Positions 51,683 to 60,322 of a DNA stretch of 64,000 nt are shown piece after piece (the first letter of the stretch is position 1; every line of letters begins with the position of its first letter). Both the position numbers and the translations under genes were made by a program. The stretch comes from an uncultured Dehalococcoidia bacterium (lineage in GTDB: Bacteria > Chloroflexota > Dehalococcoidia > Lucifugimonadales > UBA3495): positions 39,540 to 103,539 of the forward strand of contig CAZCZB010000005.1 in the NCBI GenBank assembly GCA_964502995.1, written 5' to 3'. The notes under the pieces were generated by a model. It was not told the DNA's origin. It did not search any database and saw nothing but the letters and a program-made list of their open reading frames with translations.

Positions 51683-52411
51683 ATGACCAACCCAATCATC
51701 CGACACGACGGCCGCCACCCGGACCAATTGCGCCCGGTCCGCATCACGCCCAACTGCCAGCCCTACGCAGAAGGGTCGGCCATGATCGAAATGGGCGATA
51801 CGACGGTGCTGTGCGCCGCGTCGGTGGAGGAGGAGGTGCCCGGCTGGATGCGCGGGCGCGGCACCGGTTGGGTCACCGCCGAGTACGATATGCTGCCCCG
51901 CGCCACGTCATCCCGTCGTCGCCGGGACCGCGATTCGGGACGCACCGCCAGCCGCTCCCAGGAGATACAGCGACTCATCGGGAGGTCGCTGCGGGCGGCC
52001 ACCGACCTGCCGGCCCTGGGCGAGCGGGCCATCTACCTGGACTGCGACGTGCTGCAGGCCGACGGGGGAACGCGCACGGCGGCCATCACCGGCGCATACG
52101 TGGCGCTGCATCTGGCGCTGCAAGGATTGGTTGCGGACGGCAGGCTGGAAACTGTGCCACTGCATTGCGCGGTGGCCGCCATCAGCATCGGCATACACGA
52201 CGGCGGGTTGCTGCTGGACCTGGACTACGCGGAGGACTCCTTCGCCGACGCCGACTTCAACATCGTGCTGACGGACGCCGGCGACATCGTGGAGATCCAG
52301 GGCACCGCCGAGGGCAATCCGTTCCCCCGCCAGCAGGTTGCCGATGCGATGGCGCTGGCGGCGCGGGGTATGGAACCGCTATTCGCCGCGCAGCGGAGGG
52401 CGGTGGGGTGA
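51683..52411 (+). CDS. rph: Ribonuclease PH
   Basis: Contains [16 protein letters not shown]...[23 protein letters not shown]...[14 protein letters not shown]. Confidence 0.95.
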
Positions 52412-52444
52412 TAATAATGTGTTAATATCAGCGAACTCCCTGAG

Positions 52445-52951
52445 TTGCCAATTCAGGCTCGACAATGGACAAACCAGATGACCCACGAACAACAGATGGA
52501 GCAATTCTCTTTGGCGCACATCCGGGCGGTCGCGGCTCGGGCAGGATACCAAGTTACCCGAGACGAAACCGACACTGGCCTGGATGGAGTATTAAAAGGC
52601 GACGGTTCGGGCCGGCCAAGAATGGAGTTTCAAGCCAAATCGACCTCCACTGACGTACGCCGCGGAGACTATCTACATTTCCCACTTCCGGTCGGCAATT
52701 ACAACATTCTGCGTGATGAAAACAGTGTACTGCCTGCGATCCTGATAGTAGTGACGGTGCCGCGAGATGTACGAGATTGGACGAACCAGTCGGATGAGCA
52801 ACTGTGTTTACGCCATTGCGCATACTGGTTGTCCTTAGAAGGCCACCCAGCTGTACCCAACACATCCACAGTAACAGTTTACGTTCCGACCACCAACGTA
52901 TTCAGTAGCGAACAATTGACCACGTTGATGGATCAAACATCGGGAAGGTGA
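52445..52951 (+). CDS. DUF4365-like PD-(D/E)xK nuclease-fold protein. The likely start is the ATG at 52478.
   Basis: Contains EQFSLAHIRAVAARAGYQV...DTGLDGVL...MEFQAKST (D...ExK-like core) and the C-terminal CAYWLSLEGHP..NTSTVTVYVPTTNVFSSEQL, as in DUF4365. Local G+C is lower. Confidence 0.6.
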   Translation: MPIQARQWTNQMTHEQQMEQFSLAHIRAVAARAGYQVTRDETDTGLDGVLKGDGSGRPRMEFQAKSTSTDVRRGDYLHFPLPVGNYNILRDENSVLPAILIVVTVPRDVRDWTNQSDEQLCLRHCAYWLSLEGHPAVPNTSTVTVYVPTTNVFSSEQLTTLMDQTSGR

Positions 52952-54087
52952 AGGCCATGGAGGTTACGATACGCGACCAGGCCGCATTGGAATCTTTACC
53001 TCTTTTGAGTGTGCGTGCCTACCTCTCATCTCAAGGATGGATCAACGACGGTTCCTGGGGTCGTCGTAGGTTGGCGAGCTTGTACTTGAAGGAGCAAGGA
53101 GCGAAAAGTTGGGACTTGGTAGTACCCAACTTGGACACGGTTTCGGACTACGCCCGCAGGATGTTTGAAGTTGTCGAGACGCTATCAAAAGTCGAGGAGC
53201 GCCCGCAACTGGACGTGTTTTACGACCTCAAAAACGCTGGGGGAGACATCATCCGGCTAAGTTCCAGAAACGGGAAAGCCAGACACCCCATGTCGTTGCG
53301 TGATACCACAGAACTGCTCAGCGACACATACGGAATGCTATCGGCGGCCGCTCGATCGGTTGAGAACCCTCAAGCGGTTCACCGAGGAAGCTTGAGCACC
53401 GAAATATCCGATTACCTTGGCGCAGTGCAACTGCTTCCCCATAACTTTGATACCTACGCACTAGCGTTGCGTTCTCCAGCTCCCGGTGGAATTGGCCCTC
53501 AGCTGGACCTCGGCGATGAGTACCATACTCCTTTCCCACGGCGGGCCACGTCCCGACTAAGTCAGGCACTCCAGTCCACCACAGCAGCGGTCAGGGAAGC
53601 AATCGGCACAGATACACTCGATCCCTTTAGAGAAGCCGTGTCGGAGGGAGTCAGCGCTAACCTTTGCAGTTCAGTAGCGCGGTTAGCCGAAAAGGGACAT
53701 GGAATTGAAATCAGAGTCCATTGGGCCGAAACCCGCCCCTCCACCACGCCCGAGCAGCGTTTTCCGTTTGGCACACATACTGTGGGTGTGCTAAACGACG
53801 CTGCGGCCGATTTTCGTCGCAATGAACCTTCTCCCAGTGAACTCATCACGGGGCACATTGCCCGGTTGGAAAGGGACAACCCTGATGAATTTGATGGGAG
53901 GGCTGTAATCCTGTCAGTGCGCGACGAGCGACAAGTACGGGTCAGGGTTGAGTTCAAAGAACCAGATTTCAAAAAAGTAATTGATGCGTTTCAATCTTTG
54001 TCTCCAATACGAGTAACTGGCGATGTGTACCGAGTCGGCAATACATACGAATTGCGAAATCCACGTGACCTAACCGTGCTTGAATAG
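52948..54087 (+). CDS. Unknown 379-aa protein coupled to the DUF4365-like gene. The start is GTG 52948, or ATG 52957 with a GGAAGG Shine-Dalgarno sequence.
   Basis: Either the start overlaps the upstream stop (GTGA) or a 5-nt gap separates them. The ORF is long and coherent, and I recognise no motif. Local G+C is lower. Confidence 0.6.
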   Translation: MKAMEVTIRDQAALESLPLLSVRAYLSSQGWINDGSWGRRRLASLYLKEQGAKSWDLVVPNLDTVSDYARRMFEVVETLSKVEERPQLDVFYDLKNAGGDIIRLSSRNGKARHPMSLRDTTELLSDTYGMLSAAARSVENPQAVHRGSLSTEISDYLGAVQLLPHNFDTYALALRSPAPGGIGPQLDLGDEYHTPFPRRATSRLSQALQSTTAAVREAIGTDTLDPFREAVSEGVSANLCSSVARLAEKGHGIEIRVHWAETRPSTTPEQRFPFGTHTVGVLNDAAADFRRNEPSPSELITGHIARLERDNPDEFDGRAVILSVRDERQVRVRVEFKEPDFKKVIDAFQSLSPIRVTGDVYRVGNTYELRNPRDLTVLE

Positions 54088-54112
54088 TCGGATACGAACT
54101 TTCGCCGCTGGG

Positions 54113-56773
54113 CTAATCCACCGCCAGGCCCTCCGCGTCCAGCACGGTTAGGCCGTGGCCGAGGTCTTGGAGGGGTTGTTCGATTTGTTGGCGGTCGCCC
54201 ACTACGAGGATGGTGAGGCGGTTGGGGTTCAGGTATTGGGCGCCGACGCGGTGGGTGTCGGGAAGAGCGACTGCGTTCAGGCGTTCCTCGAAGGTGCGGA
54301 AATGGTCGTCGGGCAGGTTGAATTGCGCCAGGGTGACAAGCTGTCCCAATATCTGGGCGGGACGCTCGAATCCTGCGGGATAGCCGAGGCGCAAACCGGT
54401 CTGGGCGTTGGTCAGTTCTTCGTCGGTCAAGGGGCGCTGCCCGCTGATGTCGGCGAACTCTTTCAACGTCTCGACCACGGCCTCGCGGGTAACTGCGGTT
54501 TGAACGCTGCCGCCGGCCGAGAGCAGCGACGCTGCGTTGTACCACGCTATGCCCGAGTTGTAGCCGTAGCTGTATCCCTTGTCCTGCCGCAGGTTCTGGT
54601 TCAGGCGGGCCGAGAACTGGCCGCCGAAGGCGTAGTTCAGCACCGACAGCGGCATGTAATCGGGGTGGCTGCGATCAACCAGTGGCATACCGGCGCGTAT
54701 CACCGACTGGGCGGCGCCGGGCTTGTCGATGAGGTAGATGCGGGGGCCGCTGCTGCCATCGGACACATCGCCGGCGGTAACACCGGACGCCGGTTTCGAC
54801 GGGGCGGCCCAATCACCGAAATGTTCCTGCGCTGCCGACATCGCATCGTCCAGCGTTATGTCGCCGGCCACGAGCAGGGAGAGGCGATCGGGCCGCATGG
54901 ATTCGGCGTGCCGCGCCACGAGGTCGGCGCGCTGGGCCGCCACAACGGACGCCTCGGTGCCCAGATTCGAGTGGCCGTAGGGCGAGCCGGGGCCAAAGAC
55001 CAGCGCGCCATAGTTTGAATCGGCCAGGAATCCGGCGTCGTCCCGGGCCCGGCGGAGGTCGGTGAGACGCTCGCGGCGCACGCGCTCCAGTTCATGCTCG
55101 GGGAAACTGGCGTTGCGGGCCACGTCGGCGGCCAGTCCCAAGGCGTGCCGCCAGTGCCGGTCGAGGGTCTCCGCAGTGAGCAGGGTGAGTTCCTTGCGGG
55201 CCTCGGTGGAGAGGCGGGATCCGATGTGCTCGAAGGCGGCGGAGATTTCCTGGCTGGTGCGGCCGGTGGTTCCCTCGTCCATCATGGTGGCTGTGAAGGA
55301 CGACAGGCCGGGCAGCGCGGCGGGATCTCCGGTTGCGCCGGCGCGGGCCACGAGGGCGAAGGACACCAGCGGGAGTCCCGGTTTGTTGGCGACGATGACC
55401 TCAATGCCGTTGTCCAGTCGGCCGCGTTGGGGAGTCGGCGGGACGAAGGACGGTGTCGGTCCGCCGTCGGGCTGCTGAGTGCGGTCAACAGACATTGTGG
55501 CGGTGGACAGCGGGCGCTCGGGATACACGCGCATCCGCACCTGGCCGCCGTCCATGATCCGGCGATGGACGCGCATCACGTCGTCGCGGGTCACCTTCCG
55601 GTAGTCGTCCATCACCGTGTTGAGGCGGTTGGGGTCGCCGGTGTAGGTGTTGAAGTAGTTGAGGGCGTCGGCGCGGCCGCCGAACCCGCCGACGCGGGAG
55701 AGCATGCGGTAGTGCTGCATTTCGATGCGGTTGATGGCGCGCTCGAACTCCTCTTCGGTGGGTGGTTCGGTGGCGATGCTGGCCAGAACTTCGTGGGCGG
55801 CCGCCTCTACCTCGTCCAGGGTGTGGCCCTCGGCGGGGGTGAGTTCCATGCGGAACTGGCCGGCGATTTCGGCGGCGTAGTAACTGACCGACGCCGACTG
55901 GGCGATCTGCTTTTCGTACACCAGCGAGCGGTACATGCGGCTGCTGTGGCCGTCGGACAGGATGGCGCGCAGTATGTCGCTGGCGTCATCGTCGCCGGAC
56001 AGGTTGGCGGGGGCGAGCCACACGGAATACTGGCGCGGCAGGGTGACGCGGTCGGTCATCTCCAGATCGACGCGGCCGGCCAGGGGCGAGTCGGCGCGGG
56101 CGATACGGCGCACCGCGGGGCCGGGGTCAAGGTCGGAAAAGTACCGCTGGGCCATATCCAATGCCTCGGCGGTGTCGATGTCGCCGGCGATGGCGAGGCT
56201 GGCGTTGGACGGCGAGTAGAAACGGCGGAAGAAGTCCATCACGTCGTCGAGGCTGGCAGCGTCCAGGTCTTCCTGGGAGCCGATGGTCATCCAGTGGTAG
56301 GGATGGGGCAGCGGGAAGAGCGATTGCTGGATGTGCCATTGGGCCATGCCGTAGGGGCGGTTCTCGTAACTCTGGCGGCGCTCGTTTTTGACCACGTCGC
56401 GCTCGGTGTCGAATCCCTCCTGATCGAGGGCATCGAGGAGGAATCCCATTCGGTCGGCCTCGAGCCAGAGGGCCATTTCCAGATAGTTGGACGGGACGTC
56501 TTCCCAGTAATTGGTGCGGTCTCCGGTGGTGGAGCCGTTGAGGGTGGCGCCGATCTTCTGGAGGGGCTCGAAGTGGCTGGCCTTGTGGTGCCGGGTGCCC
56601 CGGAACATGATGTGCTCGAAGAGGTGGGCGAACCCGGTGCGTCCGATCTCCTCGTCCTTGGAACCCACGTGGTACCAGACGTTGACGGCGGCCACGGGGA
56701 TGGAACGGTCCTGGTGGACGATCACGTCCAGACCGTTGGACAGGGTGTGTTTTTCAAAAGCGATGCCAGCCAT
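54113..56773 (-). CDS. M16 (pitrilysin/insulinase) family zinc peptidase, double-length
   Basis: The HxxEH motif appears in GFAHLFEHIMFRGT. The protein has four M16-type half-domains and is 886 aa. Confidence 0.85.
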   Translation of the reverse strand: MAGIAFEKHTLSNGLDVIVHQDRSIPVAAVNVWYHVGSKDEEIGRTGFAHLFEHIMFRGTRHHKASHFEPLQKIGATLNGSTTGDRTNYWEDVPSNYLEMALWLEADRMGFLLDALDQEGFDTERDVVKNERRQSYENRPYGMAQWHIQQSLFPLPHPYHWMTIGSQEDLDAASLDDVMDFFRRFYSPSNASLAIAGDIDTAEALDMAQRYFSDLDPGPAVRRIARADSPLAGRVDLEMTDRVTLPRQYSVWLAPANLSGDDDASDILRAILSDGHSSRMYRSLVYEKQIAQSASVSYYAAEIAGQFRMELTPAEGHTLDEVEAAAHEVLASIATEPPTEEEFERAINRIEMQHYRMLSRVGGFGGRADALNYFNTYTGDPNRLNTVMDDYRKVTRDDVMRVHRRIMDGGQVRMRVYPERPLSTATMSVDRTQQPDGGPTPSFVPPTPQRGRLDNGIEVIVANKPGLPLVSFALVARAGATGDPAALPGLSSFTATMMDEGTTGRTSQEISAAFEHIGSRLSTEARKELTLLTAETLDRHWRHALGLAADVARNASFPEHELERVRRERLTDLRRARDDAGFLADSNYGALVFGPGSPYGHSNLGTEASVVAAQRADLVARHAESMRPDRLSLLVAGDITLDDAMSAAQEHFGDWAAPSKPASGVTAGDVSDGSSGPRIYLIDKPGAAQSVIRAGMPLVDRSHPDYMPLSVLNYAFGGQFSARLNQNLRQDKGYSYGYNSGIAWYNAASLLSAGGSVQTAVTREAVVETLKEFADISGQRPLTDEELTNAQTGLRLGYPAGFERPAQILGQLVTLAQFNLPDDHFRTFEERLNAVALPDTHRVGAQYLNPNRLTILVVGDRQQIEQPLQDLGHGLTVLDAEGLAVD

Positions 56774-56825: not shown

Positions 56826-57284
56826 GTGCGAATGTTGGGCCGGCACGATGTGGAGGTGTGCTATATTCGATTCGATTCGACGATTCCGAGGTTTCTCCCA
56901 GTGCTATACGAGGTTGAAGTGGTTGCCGACGGCAACAGTCCCATGGATCTGAACCGGGTTTTTGACCTGCTGACCGACCCTCGGCCGGTGCTGCGAATCA
57001 TTGCGCCGGACCCGATGGGGAACGACGTCTGGTGCGACGTGGCGGGTTGGGAGAACGGCGAGCCGTGTCCTGCGATGGCCGCGCTGTCGGAGGACTCGGG
57101 CGAGGGCGTCATTATGCTGATCTACGGGGGCGAGGACGGCATTCGCCTGAAGCCCGCCGAGGGATCAGGCGACTGGGACGGCGATTCCTCGGATCAGTGG
57201 GGCGAGGCATGCCTGATGCTGGGGAACGACGTGGAGATCGAGTACGCGCCGGCGGGTTGGGATTACGGGCAGCATCCGCATTGA
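56826..57284 (+). CDS. Hypothetical acidic protein (start uncertain, possibly GTG 56901)
   Basis: Strong third-position G+C bias. I recognise no family. Confidence 0.4.
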   Translation: MRMLGRHDVEVCYIRFDSTIPRFLPVLYEVEVVADGNSPMDLNRVFDLLTDPRPVLRIIAPDPMGNDVWCDVAGWENGEPCPAMAALSEDSGEGVIMLIYGGEDGIRLKPAEGSGDWDGDSSDQWGEACLMLGNDVEIEYAPAGWDYGQHPH

Positions 57285-57317
57285 CCAGTTGGGTGGTTTG
57301 TACGTACAGCATCCATG

Positions 57318-58925
57318 TTAGTTGGGGAGTATCTCCAGCTGTCCAACGACGGTCTCTCTGCCGACTGTTACGTGAACGCTGTATATTCCCGGCGCAACGT
57401 CTGGCACAATGATACCCTCGACCGTGGCGTTGCCGTTTCGGTCAGTGTTGATGACCGTATTGCCGAGGCGATTGCCTCCGGCGATGCTCACTGATGTCAC
57501 CAGCTCGAACACAGGCATACCGACCAGTTCAATGGTCACCAGTTCACCGGGCCGCGCCTGCTCAGGCATGATGGTAATGCCAGGAGCCGGATTGTCGGAG
57601 GTATCATGTTCATAAGGCAGTATTTCCAGTTGTGCAACCACCGCCTCTCCGCCAACCGCTACATGCACATTGTAATGTCCGGGTGCAGCAACAGGAACCA
57701 CAATGCCACCAACGGTGGCGTTGCCATCTCGGTCAGTGTTGATGACCGTATTGCCGAGGCGATTGGAACCGGCGATGCGCACCGATTCCACCAATGTAAA
57801 AACTGGCATATTGAACAGTCGAATGCTCAGAAAGTCCCCAGGCTGTGCCTGCTCCGGTGTGATGGTCATGCTGGGGGTTGGAGTTCTGAACGTAGCAGAT
57901 TTATAAATCCTTCCACGAGAGTCCTCAAAGACGACCTCTACGTAGTGCTGTCCTCCCAAGTTGATATCGGAACTGAGGCGGACCTGGTGTGTAAATCGGC
58001 CTGAGGTATCTATGGCCTCTGATCTATCTCTACCGTCTACAAATATACTAACCGCTCGTCCGGTTTCAAAGGTGGACATGGGCCAATTCTCGCCGTAGAT
58101 AGCGATGTAGTCGCGTGGTCCGGCTACTTCCGGAGTAATGGTTACAACGGGTTCAAGGATGGTGATCTCGGCCTCGCCTTCGAAGCCGGCGGAGTCCACT
58201 ACCTTGAGGGTGTGGACGCCGGCGACTAGCGCCGGATTGCTGCCGTTGCCGACGCTCCAGATGCGGGCTTCAAAAACGAACTGGCCGCTGCTGTCGATCC
58301 GAAGTTTGCCATTCGCTGTGCCGGTTAGGTCCACATCCAGCGGTTCGCCATCCAGAGTAATCTTACTCGCGTCGATGGTGGCAGCAGAGCCGAAGCCACT
58401 CCCCACGATGATGATGGACTCATTGGCGACTACGATGGTCTTGCTCAGTTGGAGGTGACCTGCTGCTGTGGTGGGCGTGTGGGGTGGGCAGACTTCGGTA
58501 CCTTGCTGTCCGGAAGTAGTTACCGCGTCTGACCAGGGAGTCCATGTTGGCGGAATGCCGCCGAAACGCTGGGCTTGCGCTCCTACGTTGACGTAGTATT
58601 CATCACCGGGTTCAAGGCCTCTGATCGTATGGCTGGTATAGATTCCCGTTATTGTGACGTATCGGAACGCGTCCAGCCAATTGCGGCCGTCGGACTGCAT
58701 CGCGCTGATATCGCTTTTGCTGATCCAGCCAACCGTATAGTAGTTGGTACCGGGCGCATTGTTCCAACTTACCCGCAGTTCGCCGGCGTTTTCGGTGGCA
58801 ACAACAGTGGGTGGATTCTGCACTGCCGGCTGAGCTGACGCCTTTCCAACGGCCAGGTTTGCTCCCGCCAACAGCACCGCTGCAATCAAGAGAGACGTTG
58901 CAGTAAGGACGATTCGCTTTTGCAT
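57318..58925 (-). CDS. Secreted multi-domain protein with an FN3-like domain and repeated Ig-like domains
   Basis: The signal peptide is MQKRIVLTATSLLIAAVLLAGANLAVGKASA. It contains ELRVSWNNAPGTNYYTVGW and two near-identical 97-aa repeats (...RIAGSNRLGNTVINTDRDGNATV...QLEILP). Confidence 0.6.
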   Translation of the reverse strand: MQKRIVLTATSLLIAAVLLAGANLAVGKASAQPAVQNPPTVVATENAGELRVSWNNAPGTNYYTVGWISKSDISAMQSDGRNWLDAFRYVTITGIYTSHTIRGLEPGDEYYVNVGAQAQRFGGIPPTWTPWSDAVTTSGQQGTEVCPPHTPTTAAGHLQLSKTIVVANESIIIVGSGFGSAATIDASKITLDGEPLDVDLTGTANGKLRIDSSGQFVFEARIWSVGNGSNPALVAGVHTLKVVDSAGFEGEAEITILEPVVTITPEVAGPRDYIAIYGENWPMSTFETGRAVSIFVDGRDRSEAIDTSGRFTHQVRLSSDINLGGQHYVEVVFEDSRGRIYKSATFRTPTPSMTITPEQAQPGDFLSIRLFNMPVFTLVESVRIAGSNRLGNTVINTDRDGNATVGGIVVPVAAPGHYNVHVAVGGEAVVAQLEILPYEHDTSDNPAPGITIMPEQARPGELVTIELVGMPVFELVTSVSIAGGNRLGNTVINTDRNGNATVEGIIVPDVAPGIYSVHVTVGRETVVGQLEILPN

Positions 58926-59032
58926 ACAGAACTTTCTTTTGTGCAAGCGGTAGAGGCACCTACGGATATCAGGGTTGCCGATTTACAGGGCCTTCTATCG
59001 ACAAGCGTGTCAGGAATGGCATTCTGGTTCGT

Positions 59033-60322
59033 CTATCCTGTGGTATGGAGAGTCGTCTCGTCGGGGGCGTCGGGCCAGGGTTCTTCGGTGAACTTGGGGT
59101 TGGCCGTGAGGGTTTCGAGGACGCCGGGGAGATCGCGGCGGTAACCGCCCTTGCCGTCCTTGCGGGGGCGCATGCGGGCGGACGGGCCGGTGTGCAGCAG
59201 TTGGAACGCCTCGTCGTCGGACGCGGGCGGGTTGTCGAGACATTCGTCCAGTTCGACGGCCACGATGTACACCCGGCGGGCGGCCGAGTCGGATTGGCGC
59301 TGCATGATCTCGCGGTACAGGCGCCAGCAGAGCGGACTTTCCAGGGCCTCGCCGGAGCAGAGCAGGGCGACGCGGTCGTAGTTGCGAAAGCGGCTCATGG
59401 GCGGTATGACCTGCGAGTTGTAGATGGTCTCCTCGTCGTCGGCCAGGAGGCTCCAGCATTGCAGGCCGCGCTGCCGAAGTTCGTCCTCCAGCCAGTTGAC
59501 GATATTGGAGTCCACGGTCGATCCGATGAGCAGAACGCGACGGTGGGGCGTTTCCTGCTGCAACAGGCTGGCGTGGCCGTTGATGAAATCGGGGGGCACT
59601 CCGGCCGAGCGCATGAACACCTCGGGCAGGGCGCCGCCGGACCGGGCAAGGGTATCGGCGCCCACGATGCTGGGCCCCTCGTGGCGCAGGGTTTCGAGGC
59701 ACAGCGCGGCGCTGAGGTCGCAGTCGGCGAAGAGGGTCATATCCACGAGACCGTCTTCGACTATGGTGCAGTCGAGGCGGGTGCGAACGAGGGAGGTTTG
59801 GCGCAGGTCGCAGCGGGTGAGGTTGGCGACGTCGAGGCAGGCGGCGTTGAGCCGGGCGCCGCTGAGGTTGGCGTCGGTGAGGTCGGACATGGTGAGGTCG
59901 GCTTCGGAGAGGTCGGCGCCGGCCAGGTTCGCCCCGACGAGGGTGGAGAAGGCGATGTCGCAGTTGGTGAGATTGGCGCCGCGCAGGTCGGCGTGGTTGA
60001 GGTTGCTGCCGCGCAGGTCGGAGCGGGTGAAGACGGCGCCGGAGGCCTGGGAATCCTCGAAACTGGCGCGGTTGAGGTTGCAGCGGGTGAGGTGGGCCTC
60101 GCGCATCCTGGCGCCGTTGAAGCGTCCGTGACGCAGGTCGGCGGAGGTGAGGTCGATCTGGGTGAGGTCGTCGAAGGAGAGATCGACGCCGGGCATTCTG
60201 ATGCCGCTCAGGTACGCGCCCGACAGATCGAGGTGGGCACGTTCCTGGAAGTGGGTGGCGCGCCAGCGAGCGATGGCGAAGGCGCGCCGCTTGGCAATGG
60301 CTATATGTTCCGGGTTGGCCAA
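59033..60322 (-). CDS. Pentapeptide-repeat protein with a C-terminal TIR-like domain
   Basis: About 200 aa of A(D/N)LxG-type pentapeptide repeats. This is followed by RRVLLIGSTVDSNIVNWLEDELRQRGLQCW...YDRVALLCSGEALESPLCWRLYREI, which has a TIR-like beta-alpha pattern with a W..x.E. Confidence 0.6.
   Translation of the reverse strand: MANPEHIAIAKRRAFAIARWRATHFQERAHLDLSGAYLSGIRMPGVDLSFDDLTQIDLTSADLRHGRFNGARMREAHLTRCNLNRASFEDSQASGAVFTRSDLRGSNLNHADLRGANLTNCDIAFSTLVGANLAGADLSEADLTMSDLTDANLSGARLNAACLDVANLTRCDLRQTSLVRTRLDCTIVEDGLVDMTLFADCDLSAALCLETLRHEGPSIVGADTLARSGGALPEVFMRSAGVPPDFINGHASLLQQETPHRRVLLIGSTVDSNIVNWLEDELRQRGLQCWSLLADDEETIYNSQVIPPMSRFRNYDRVALLCSGEALESPLCWRLYREIMQRQSDSAARRVYIVAVELDECLDNPPASDDEAFQLLHTGPSARMRPRKDGKGGYRRDLPGVLETLTANPKFTEEPWPDAPDETTLHTTG

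Follow-up and report, generated by a model that had tools for sequence, protein, structure and literature searches.

The stretch of DNA analysed here (the window) comprises 64,000 nucleotides of contig CAZCZB010000005.1, from an uncultured Dehalococcoidia bacterium, and carries between the housekeeping genes rph and M16 peptidase a compact cassette of two genes, A and B. Judged by its protein sequences, the cassette is a member of PDC-M02, a phage defence candidate already catalogued in PADLOC, and no defining feature distinguishes it from that family. Profile matches and a structural model identify gene A as a stand-alone DREN-type PD-(D/E)xK nuclease with an intact D..QxK site and predicted activity, while gene B encodes a partner of modular construction with which A forms an obligate, translationally coupled pair. 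The pair probably acts in anti-phage defence, as a predicted sensor–nuclease of the abortive-infection kind.

Family membership and protein anatomy

The two open reading frames (ORFs) recognised in an earlier sequence-only reading of this DNA exist, at 52445–52951 (168 aa from a TTG start) and 52948–54087 (379 aa from a GTG start). That reading had left alternative starts open for both, and homologue N-termini together with public gene calls favoured the shorter forms, beginning at ATG 52478 (MTHEQQMEQFSLA) and ATG 52957 (MEVTIRD). Gene A is accordingly placed at 52478–52951 (157 aa) and gene B at 52957–54087 (376 aa), both on the plus strand. The peptide motifs quoted at the time were all present.

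Protein A matched the PADLOC (PADLOC-DB v2) profile PDC-M02A with an E-value of 7.4e-50 (residues 12–166 of the 168-aa form against profile positions 1–160 of 165), and protein B matched PDC-M02B with an E-value of 1.4e-95 (residues 4–378 against positions 1–374 of 380). Among the PADLOC matches listed, 25 of 25 were PDC-M02A for protein A and 25 of 25 were PDC-M02B for protein B. The layout was that of PDC-M02 as well, with the genes adjacent on the same strand, A before B, and separated by 5 nt. The PDCs are 145 “phage defence candidates” derived from genes that lie inside BREX, DISARM and type I restriction-modification (RM) loci (Payne et al., 2024, bioRxiv 10.1101/2024.01.29.577857). PDC-M02 itself was defined by guilt-by-embedding, with embedding in type I RM loci, and is listed in the supplementary table as CAS_00021 with 894 RefSeq instances and the entry “Assign as candidate PDC-M02” (bioRxiv 10.1101/2024.01.29.577857). 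The pair had been put forward as an undescribed system, a claim that this entry overturns; it is a catalogued candidate and not a new class. The window copy shares with the family full-length matches of A and B, gene order, strand and coupling, but it stands by itself between housekeeping genes, inserted in a metagenome-assembled genome (MAG) of Chloroflexota, whereas some members of the family lie within type I RM loci. NCBIfam gave no match for protein A or B, and literature searches found no published paper on this pair.

Gene A matched Pfam family PF14280 (DUF4365) with 68 bits against a cut-off of 24.3 (E 1.2e-18, profile positions 1–138 of 139), so that the DUF4365 assignment made from the letters alone was upheld by the profile. 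The protein consists of the DUF4365 domain only, in 157 aa, and the APAZ domain is absent. Its AlphaFold2 model had a mean predicted local distance difference test score (pLDDT) of 89. The best Foldseek matches of the model were DREN-APAZ chains of SPARDA (9qcc, 9vx6 and 9jt2; E 3e-7 to 5e-5, TMq 0.63–0.67), followed by EcoRV and the archaeal Hjc/Hje resolvases, consistent with the PD-(D/E)xK fold proposed for it earlier; a sequence search of the PDB returned nothing significant for protein A. The catalytic segment lies at 52583–52639 on the plus strand, with D36 (52583–52585), Q52 (52631–52633) and K54 (52637–52639). Across 51 homologues of gene A, D32, D36, Q52 and K54 were invariant and E50 varied. 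Because Q52 and K54 are invariant and E50 is not, the catalytic strand is QxK, and not the ExK-like strand that had been read in it. D36, Q52 and K54 are equivalent to D41, Q60 and K62 of NbaDREN, and Q52 and K54 to Q62 and K64 of TmuRE. Mutation of D41, Q60 or K62 in NbaDREN (from N. baekryungensis), or of Q62 or K64 in TmuRE, abolishes the collateral nuclease activity of SPARDA.

The only DUF4365 nucleases characterised so far are immune effectors, which cut DNA and RNA indiscriminately once activated. In isolation DREN is an inactive monomer; it becomes active when it forms tetramers on a SPARDA filament induced by the target. The earlier statement that DUF4365 had no experimentally defined stand-alone system holds, although the domain as such is characterised: the DREN effector of SPARDA has both structures and mutants.

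The AlphaFold2 model of gene B (pLDDT 88.6, predicted template modelling score 0.82) was divided into three parts. An α/β N-domain (about residues 1–105, 52957–53271, plus strand) is followed by a middle domain that is helical in the modelled secondary structure (about residues 106–290, 53272–53826, plus strand), with the conserved motifs PFPRR (192–196) and GVSANLC (231–237, 53647–53667); R195, G231, S233, N235 and C237 are invariant columns of the family. The third part is a C-terminal barrel resembling an oligonucleotide/oligosaccharide-binding (OB) fold (about residues 291–376, 53827–54084, plus strand) formed by strands b1–b3, a helix at 338–346 and strands b4–b5. Searched against the PDB with Foldseek, gene B matched solely, and weakly, OB folds (Stn1/Ten1, RPA, SSB and the anticodon-binding domains of Asp/LysRS), at E 0.02–0.1, TMq ~0.17 and a probability of ~1. 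In 57 homologues the OB-like domain had a median pI of 5.0 and a net charge of −5 and is thus acidic, whole-domain charge being a crude proxy, and all three B domains, like gene A, have a pI of ~5–5.6. A role of this domain as a sensor of single-stranded DNA (ssDNA) was considered and downgraded on account of its acidity.

No family for gene B was found in Pfam, where the sole match, to HYR, was below threshold; in a PDB sequence search with the B profile nothing was significant, the sole match being to a de novo helical bundle (E 0.017). The Foldseek search, which included the SPARDA complexes, returned no Argonaute, APAZ or full-length match, and with no MID or PIWI domain detected by Pfam, B as an APAZ/Argonaute analogue was ruled out on fold grounds. 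All 122 close homologues of gene B were annotated “hypothetical”, and a profile search recovered 6079 representatives at 50% identity, of which 2016 had E ≤1e-30. Gene B had been called an orphan without an assignable motif. The first description does not fit a family of 6079 clusters, and the second is right as regards Pfam and NCBIfam but not PADLOC, where B has a full-length PDC-M02B match.

Two other systems with a DUF4365 domain may be compared. Like SPARDA, the pair is an operon of two genes in which the nuclease comes first, and its effector has the same DUF4365/DREN domain and D..QxK active site and finds its closest fold match there; activation of an inert nuclease by assembly is, by analogy, probably shared with A. 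In contrast to SPARDA, A is a 157-aa protein without APAZ, B is not a short Argonaute, nothing points to guide nucleic acids, and the putative sensor is an unrelated protein made of the N-domain, helical and OB-like parts. Divona, a Vibrio integron cassette in which DUF4365 is fused to a crr6 (PF08847) domain (bioRxiv 10.1101/2024.07.02.601686), is likewise a compact anti-phage system whose presumed effector is a DUF4365 nuclease domain, but it has no partner resembling PDC-M02B.

Pairing of A with a modular B

With the B profile, 49 genome loci (individual loci carry L numbers) were recovered from MAGs of Dehalococcoidia, Caldilineaceae, Poribacteria, Latescibacteria and Pseudomonadales, and in about 45 of the 49 a DUF4365 gene lay immediately upstream of B, usually with an overlap of 4 or 7 nt. 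Decayed copies accounted for a frameshifted A (L026), an absent A (L042, L044 and L053), a B broken by a frameshift (L046) and an insertion between the genes (L038). Since these loci had been ascertained through B, the generalisation that an intact A always keeps the N-domain was dropped as circular, and a scan was made from the A side. A metagenome search with an A-specific motif yielded 80 loci, 70 of which extended at least 350 bp downstream of A. An ORF encoding the B N-domain followed A directly in 70 of 70 (40 canonical, 13 short, four with another continuation and 13 cut by the contig end), and none lacked the N-domain.

In the window, the boundary between the genes reads GGGAAGG-TGA-AGGCC-ATG. 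The coupling region (52942–52956, plus strand, read directly from the sequence) thus contains a Shine-Dalgarno-like GGGAAGG 8–14 nt upstream of ATG 52957, the TGA of gene A (52949–52951) and the 5-nt gap. A and B are an obligate, translationally coupled pair. The tight coupling noticed in the sequence-only reading was borne out by the A-then-B order in both sets of loci, as was the co-occurrence of gene B homologues with DUF4365 genes that it had proposed to look for.

The part of B beyond the N-domain varied widely. A short B of 180 aa, consisting of the N-domain and the OB domain with the helical domain absent, occurred on Nostocales plasmids and in the 13 short metagenome loci. In L049, L051 and L052, an intact DUF4365 gene was followed by the B N-domain (~100 residues) joined to an entire PDC-S11 protein, DUF4268 included; such chimeras were located at ~8001–9317 in L048–L052, the one in L048 being truncated and that in L050 assigned by length alone. 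The N-domain stood alone beside A in L061 and L054, and minimal loci consisted of A and a 98–130-aa protein with the N-domain only. One protein (P0406) was a natural A–B fusion, in which the C-terminal half of A precedes a full B in a record truncated at its N-terminus, and another (P0471) was a full B with a C-terminal extension of ~380 aa that resembled tetratricopeptide repeats (TPR) by eye only.

The N-domain is the only part of B common to the PDC-S11 fusions, the short forms and the truncated variants. It thus invariably accompanies A, whereas the remainder of B can be exchanged. PDC-S11 is a separate, single-gene PADLOC candidate marked by DUF4268, a domain that the window B, with its helical and OB parts, does not have; the chimeras downstream of A link these two separately catalogued candidates in a shared effector/adaptor framework.

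Several of these forms would also be expected of a toxin–antitoxin or addiction module, in which A would be a constitutively active nuclease toxin and the B N-domain its stoichiometric antitoxin. Such a module would stabilise mobile elements or islands, and defence would be secondary, arising from loss of the labile antitoxin when host expression is shut off. The coupled two-gene operon on plasmids and prophages is in keeping with this, as are the minimal forms (A with the 98–130-aa N-domain protein, or with the 180-aa short B), the toxin–antitoxin genes common in such variable spots (the Gluconobacter copy adjoins RelE/ParE, and relatives have PIN/MazE close to the M16 gene) and the decayed A beside an intact B in L026, L044 and L045, as toxin loss would give. 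Yet A may not be toxic on its own, for its nearest characterised relative, DREN, shows no activity as a monomer and cuts only once assembled; and at least one locus (L046) retains an intact A next to a frameshifted B. The canonical B, with 376 aa and three conserved domains under purifying selection, goes far beyond what an antitoxin needs, and Pfam detected no DNA-binding or autoregulatory domain in it. Type II toxin–antitoxin systems with a nuclease toxin resemble the pair as small, coupled, mobile operons of plasmids and prophages, with minimal forms in which the second protein is short, but the window pair is nuclease-first and its partner is a large three-domain protein with no antitoxin-type DNA-binding domain. 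We regard the toxin–antitoxin explanation as unlikely, though it deserves to be kept in view, and defence as the probable function.

The rph–M16 site and the mobility of the pair

The cassette is flanked by rph (RNase PH, 51683–52411, plus strand) and by a gene for an M16 (pitrilysin-type) peptidase (54113–56773, minus strand), both outside the system. Pfam matches to RNase_PH and RNase_PH_C, and to Peptidase_M16 and Peptidase_M16_C, agree with the identities given to these flanks earlier. The M16 gene served as the marker in a search for empty sites, and in the closest relatives it was 85–88% identical to that of the window. The full cassette was present at the rph–M16 junction in the window, L003 and L006. 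At the same junction, L061 (L061:7699-8549, ENA ERZ21830300 ctg717582c) carried a DUF4365 gene sharing 68% identity with gene A, together with a 130-aa B consisting of the N-domain only; this arrangement either arose by deletion or is a minimal form that still functions. In four further relatives (L055, L056, L057 and L062) the junction was empty, rph and M16 being convergent and 0–70 bp apart. The occupied L003 and the empty L056 came from the same metagenome sample. The window rph shared 84–87% identity with its counterparts in L003 and L006, and the housekeeping genes of the window were 83–88% identical to those of Dehalococcoidia MAGs, in keeping with an origin in this class of Chloroflexota.

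Between L003 and L006, cassette and flanks were equally diverged at synonymous sites (pS 0.44–0.49 and 0.46–0.53, respectively), and dN/dS was ~0.10, so that A and B are under purifying selection. Between the window and these two loci, synonymous sites of the cassette were saturated (pS 0.76–0.83, dN 0.20), compared with pS 0.37–0.58 and dN 0.08–0.10 in the flanks. With the cassette more diverged than its flanks, the window allele must be much older than the flanks predict; most probably, either recombination via the conserved flanks replaced one allele with another, or the cassette was acquired independently at this site.

The composition of the cassette also departed from that of its surroundings. 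GC content was 0.50–0.57 across 52350–54150 and 0.62–0.71 on both sides, so the drop described earlier is real, and GC at third codon positions was 0.54 in gene A and gene B compared with 0.85–0.86 in rph and M16. Over 42 loci, the GC content of the cassette averaged 0.061 below that of its flanks. The non-host composition and the empty rph–M16 site in close relatives together support the horizontal acquisition that had been suggested.

A conserved, lineage-specific housekeeping pair, whose low GC would merely be a family trait, could be argued from the shared rph–M16 site in L003 and L006 and their dN/dS of ~0.1. Four relatives with equally similar M16 genes (85–88%) nevertheless have an empty junction, the pair is found at unrelated loci in over 40 further genomes, which belong to several phyla, and the window allele differs from L003 and L006 far more (pS 0.76–0.83) than its flanks do (pS 0.37–0.58). 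The empty sites exclude a housekeeping role for practical purposes, and we give it hardly any weight. The sequence-only reading had named conservation of the pair at this locus with host-like composition as evidence that would count against it; what was found instead is that the two or three carriers (L003, L006 and, with a truncated B, L061) have non-host composition and that four equally close relatives are without the pair.

At other loci, the pair was associated with defence genes and mobile elements. Of the Pfam families matched by 119 proteins encoded beside the pair at 33 loci, subunits of type I RM systems were the most frequent (HsdR in six, HsdS in five and HsdM in four). In L004 the pair adjoined a SIR2_2 protein, a transposase and a large protein with solely a faint N6_Mtase Pfam match, and in L005 it adjoined AbiEii/DUF6088 and an IS21-type element. 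It was found on 19 plasmids, of Alphaproteobacteria, Streptomyces, Entomospira and cyanobacteria, and on six IMG/VR contigs. The temperate Leptospira phage LE1 carries it as LE1-0038/0037 (L058:38735-40413, BX571876.1), a copy found by fold search and then confirmed with the PADLOC models, and in the Mycobacterium abscessus prophage prophi102-2 it forms genes 1–2, at one end of the linear record (L063:398-2160, MW584173.1); both copies are annotated as hypothetical. A tblastn search of a phage collection with gene B found nothing, and the LE1 and Mycobacterium copies were reached solely via structure or via the Nostoc short form. The conflict-system setting envisaged for the pair is thus seen at these other loci, in type I RM, AbiE, plasmid and prophage contexts.

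Travel on phages and plasmids would also suit a function in the DNA processing of mobile elements, with A a structure-specific, Hjc-like nuclease or resolvase that B, as an OB-fold accessory protein, guides to recombination or replication intermediates. The topology of DUF4365 is Hjc-like, the model of A also matched the Hjc/Hje resolvases, and B ends in an OB-like fold. The embedding within type I RM operons, however, resembles defence cargo and not a replication module; in the window and in many MAGs the pair is a solo chromosomal insertion without other mobile-element genes, its presence is patchy among near-identical lineages, the OB domain of B is acidic, and the sole characterised DUF4365 nucleases are indiscriminate immune effectors. 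This explanation appears improbable to us, more so than the toxin–antitoxin one, and the prediction of a defence function is retained.

The borders of the window cassette offered few marks of how it was inserted. The left junction (52412–52477, plus strand) is AT-rich and is the presumed promoter region of the cassette; TGTGTTAATATC stands directly 3′ of the rph stop, and a similar TGTGCTAACATC occurs in L003 and L006. A simple scan detected no sigma-70 consensus on the plus strand of this junction. The right junction (54088–54112), 25 nt between the stop of B and the convergent stop of M16, has no terminator hairpin of its own, and the same kind of scan gave no convincing promoter or terminator for the cassette. 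There were no flanking direct repeats or att-like sites at the cassette borders, no integrase in the cassette, no tRNA within the 64-kb window and no Rfam match over 51.5–57.5 kb. A 15-nt inverted repeat (54069–54083 and 54138–54152, 93% complementary) joins the last codons of gene B to the 3′ end of M16; it may be a shared terminator structure or may have arisen by chance.

A second variable spot was observed beside the cassette site, at 56826–58946 of the window, between M16 and a gene encoding a protein with pentapeptide repeats. In the window it is occupied by a 542-aa fn3/repeat protein (57318–58946, minus strand) of low GC content (0.54–0.57) and a 152-aa ORF, and in relatives by a 127-aa ORF and a PIN/MazE toxin–antitoxin pair. 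The neighbouring 429-aa protein (59033–60322, minus strand) combines its pentapeptide repeats with a C-terminal TIR_2 domain (E 8.8e-7), and its gene is syntenic in L003, L055–L057, L061 and L062. This pentapeptide–TIR fusion could itself be an immune or NADase protein.

Proposed mechanism and a phage homologue of the N-domain

The predicted defence function can be cast as the following sequence of events. A mobile module would have been inserted, or swapped in, at the variable rph–M16 spot of a Dehalococcoidia-like genome. B would dock A through its N-domain and hold it monomeric and inactive, while the variable part of B would perceive a cue of infection. In response, the complex would oligomerise or A would be released, and A protomers would come together as an active oligomer, in the manner of DREN within SPARDA filaments. 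Active A would then degrade DNA indiscriminately, so that the infection is aborted or the invading DNA destroyed. We infer that A and B are in physical contact, that a trigger sets off oligomerisation and that the outcome is defence, and hold the activation step with much less certainty than the rest.

Several points weigh against this interpretation. The contact between A and B and the oligomerisation are extrapolated from SPARDA, whose scaffold of APAZ and prokaryotic Argonaute (pAgo) is absent here. No signature of a sensor, an ATPase or nucleic-acid binding can be recognised in B, the matches of its C-terminus to OB folds are weak (E 0.02–0.1), and the acidity of that domain leaves classical, simple ssDNA binding unsupported. 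The window cassette lies between housekeeping genes and not in a defence island, and the variants in which A is accompanied by the N-domain only (L061 and L054) fit a toxin–antitoxin reading equally well. Moreover, the experimental validation of Payne et al. covered solely the HEC systems, leaving the PDCs unvalidated (bioRxiv 10.1101/2024.01.29.577857), and the searchable literature contained no experiment on PDC-M02 or on any stand-alone DUF4365 pair.

A stand-alone homologue of the B N-domain was observed in a phage. Protein gp166 (101 aa) of Nodularia phage vB_NspS-kac65v162 (L066:12830-13135; MK605244.1, 112830-113135) matched the N-domain by hmmsearch with an E-value of 7.6e-13 and by structure (BFVD A0A482MK90, TMt 0.79). 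Its gene is flanked by thyX and a dTMP kinase gene, no DUF4365 (A) gene lies nearby, and gp166 is conserved at 95–100% identity in six Nodularia siphoviruses. The short form of the pair is present on plasmids of Nostocales.

A more daring and rather doubtful proposal is that the N-domain, of about 100 aa, is a docking or regulatory adaptor for a stand-alone DREN nuclease that accepts unrelated sensor modules, and that phages have captured this adaptor as a decoy in the form of gp166. In the adaptor proposal, the pluggable modules would be the helical and OB domains together, the OB domain alone, the whole PDC-S11/DUF4268 protein and, judged by eye, the TPR-like extension. Speculatively, gp166 would disarm the system in Nostocales hosts, either by binding A or by competing with B. 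If true, adaptor and decoy would represent a new modular sensor–effector architecture and a new family of anti-defence proteins.

PDC-M02 is among the more frequent multi-gene candidates obtained through guilt-by-embedding (894 RefSeq cassettes), and has had no published domain description or mechanism. What is added here is the domain anatomy of the pair, the strict link between A and the N-domain, an allelic series at a single locus and the phage homologue gp166. If confirmed, the function predicted for the pair would show that a SPARDA-type collateral nuclease is used outside Argonaute systems, and would provide a compact (~1.6 kb) inducible nuclease module.

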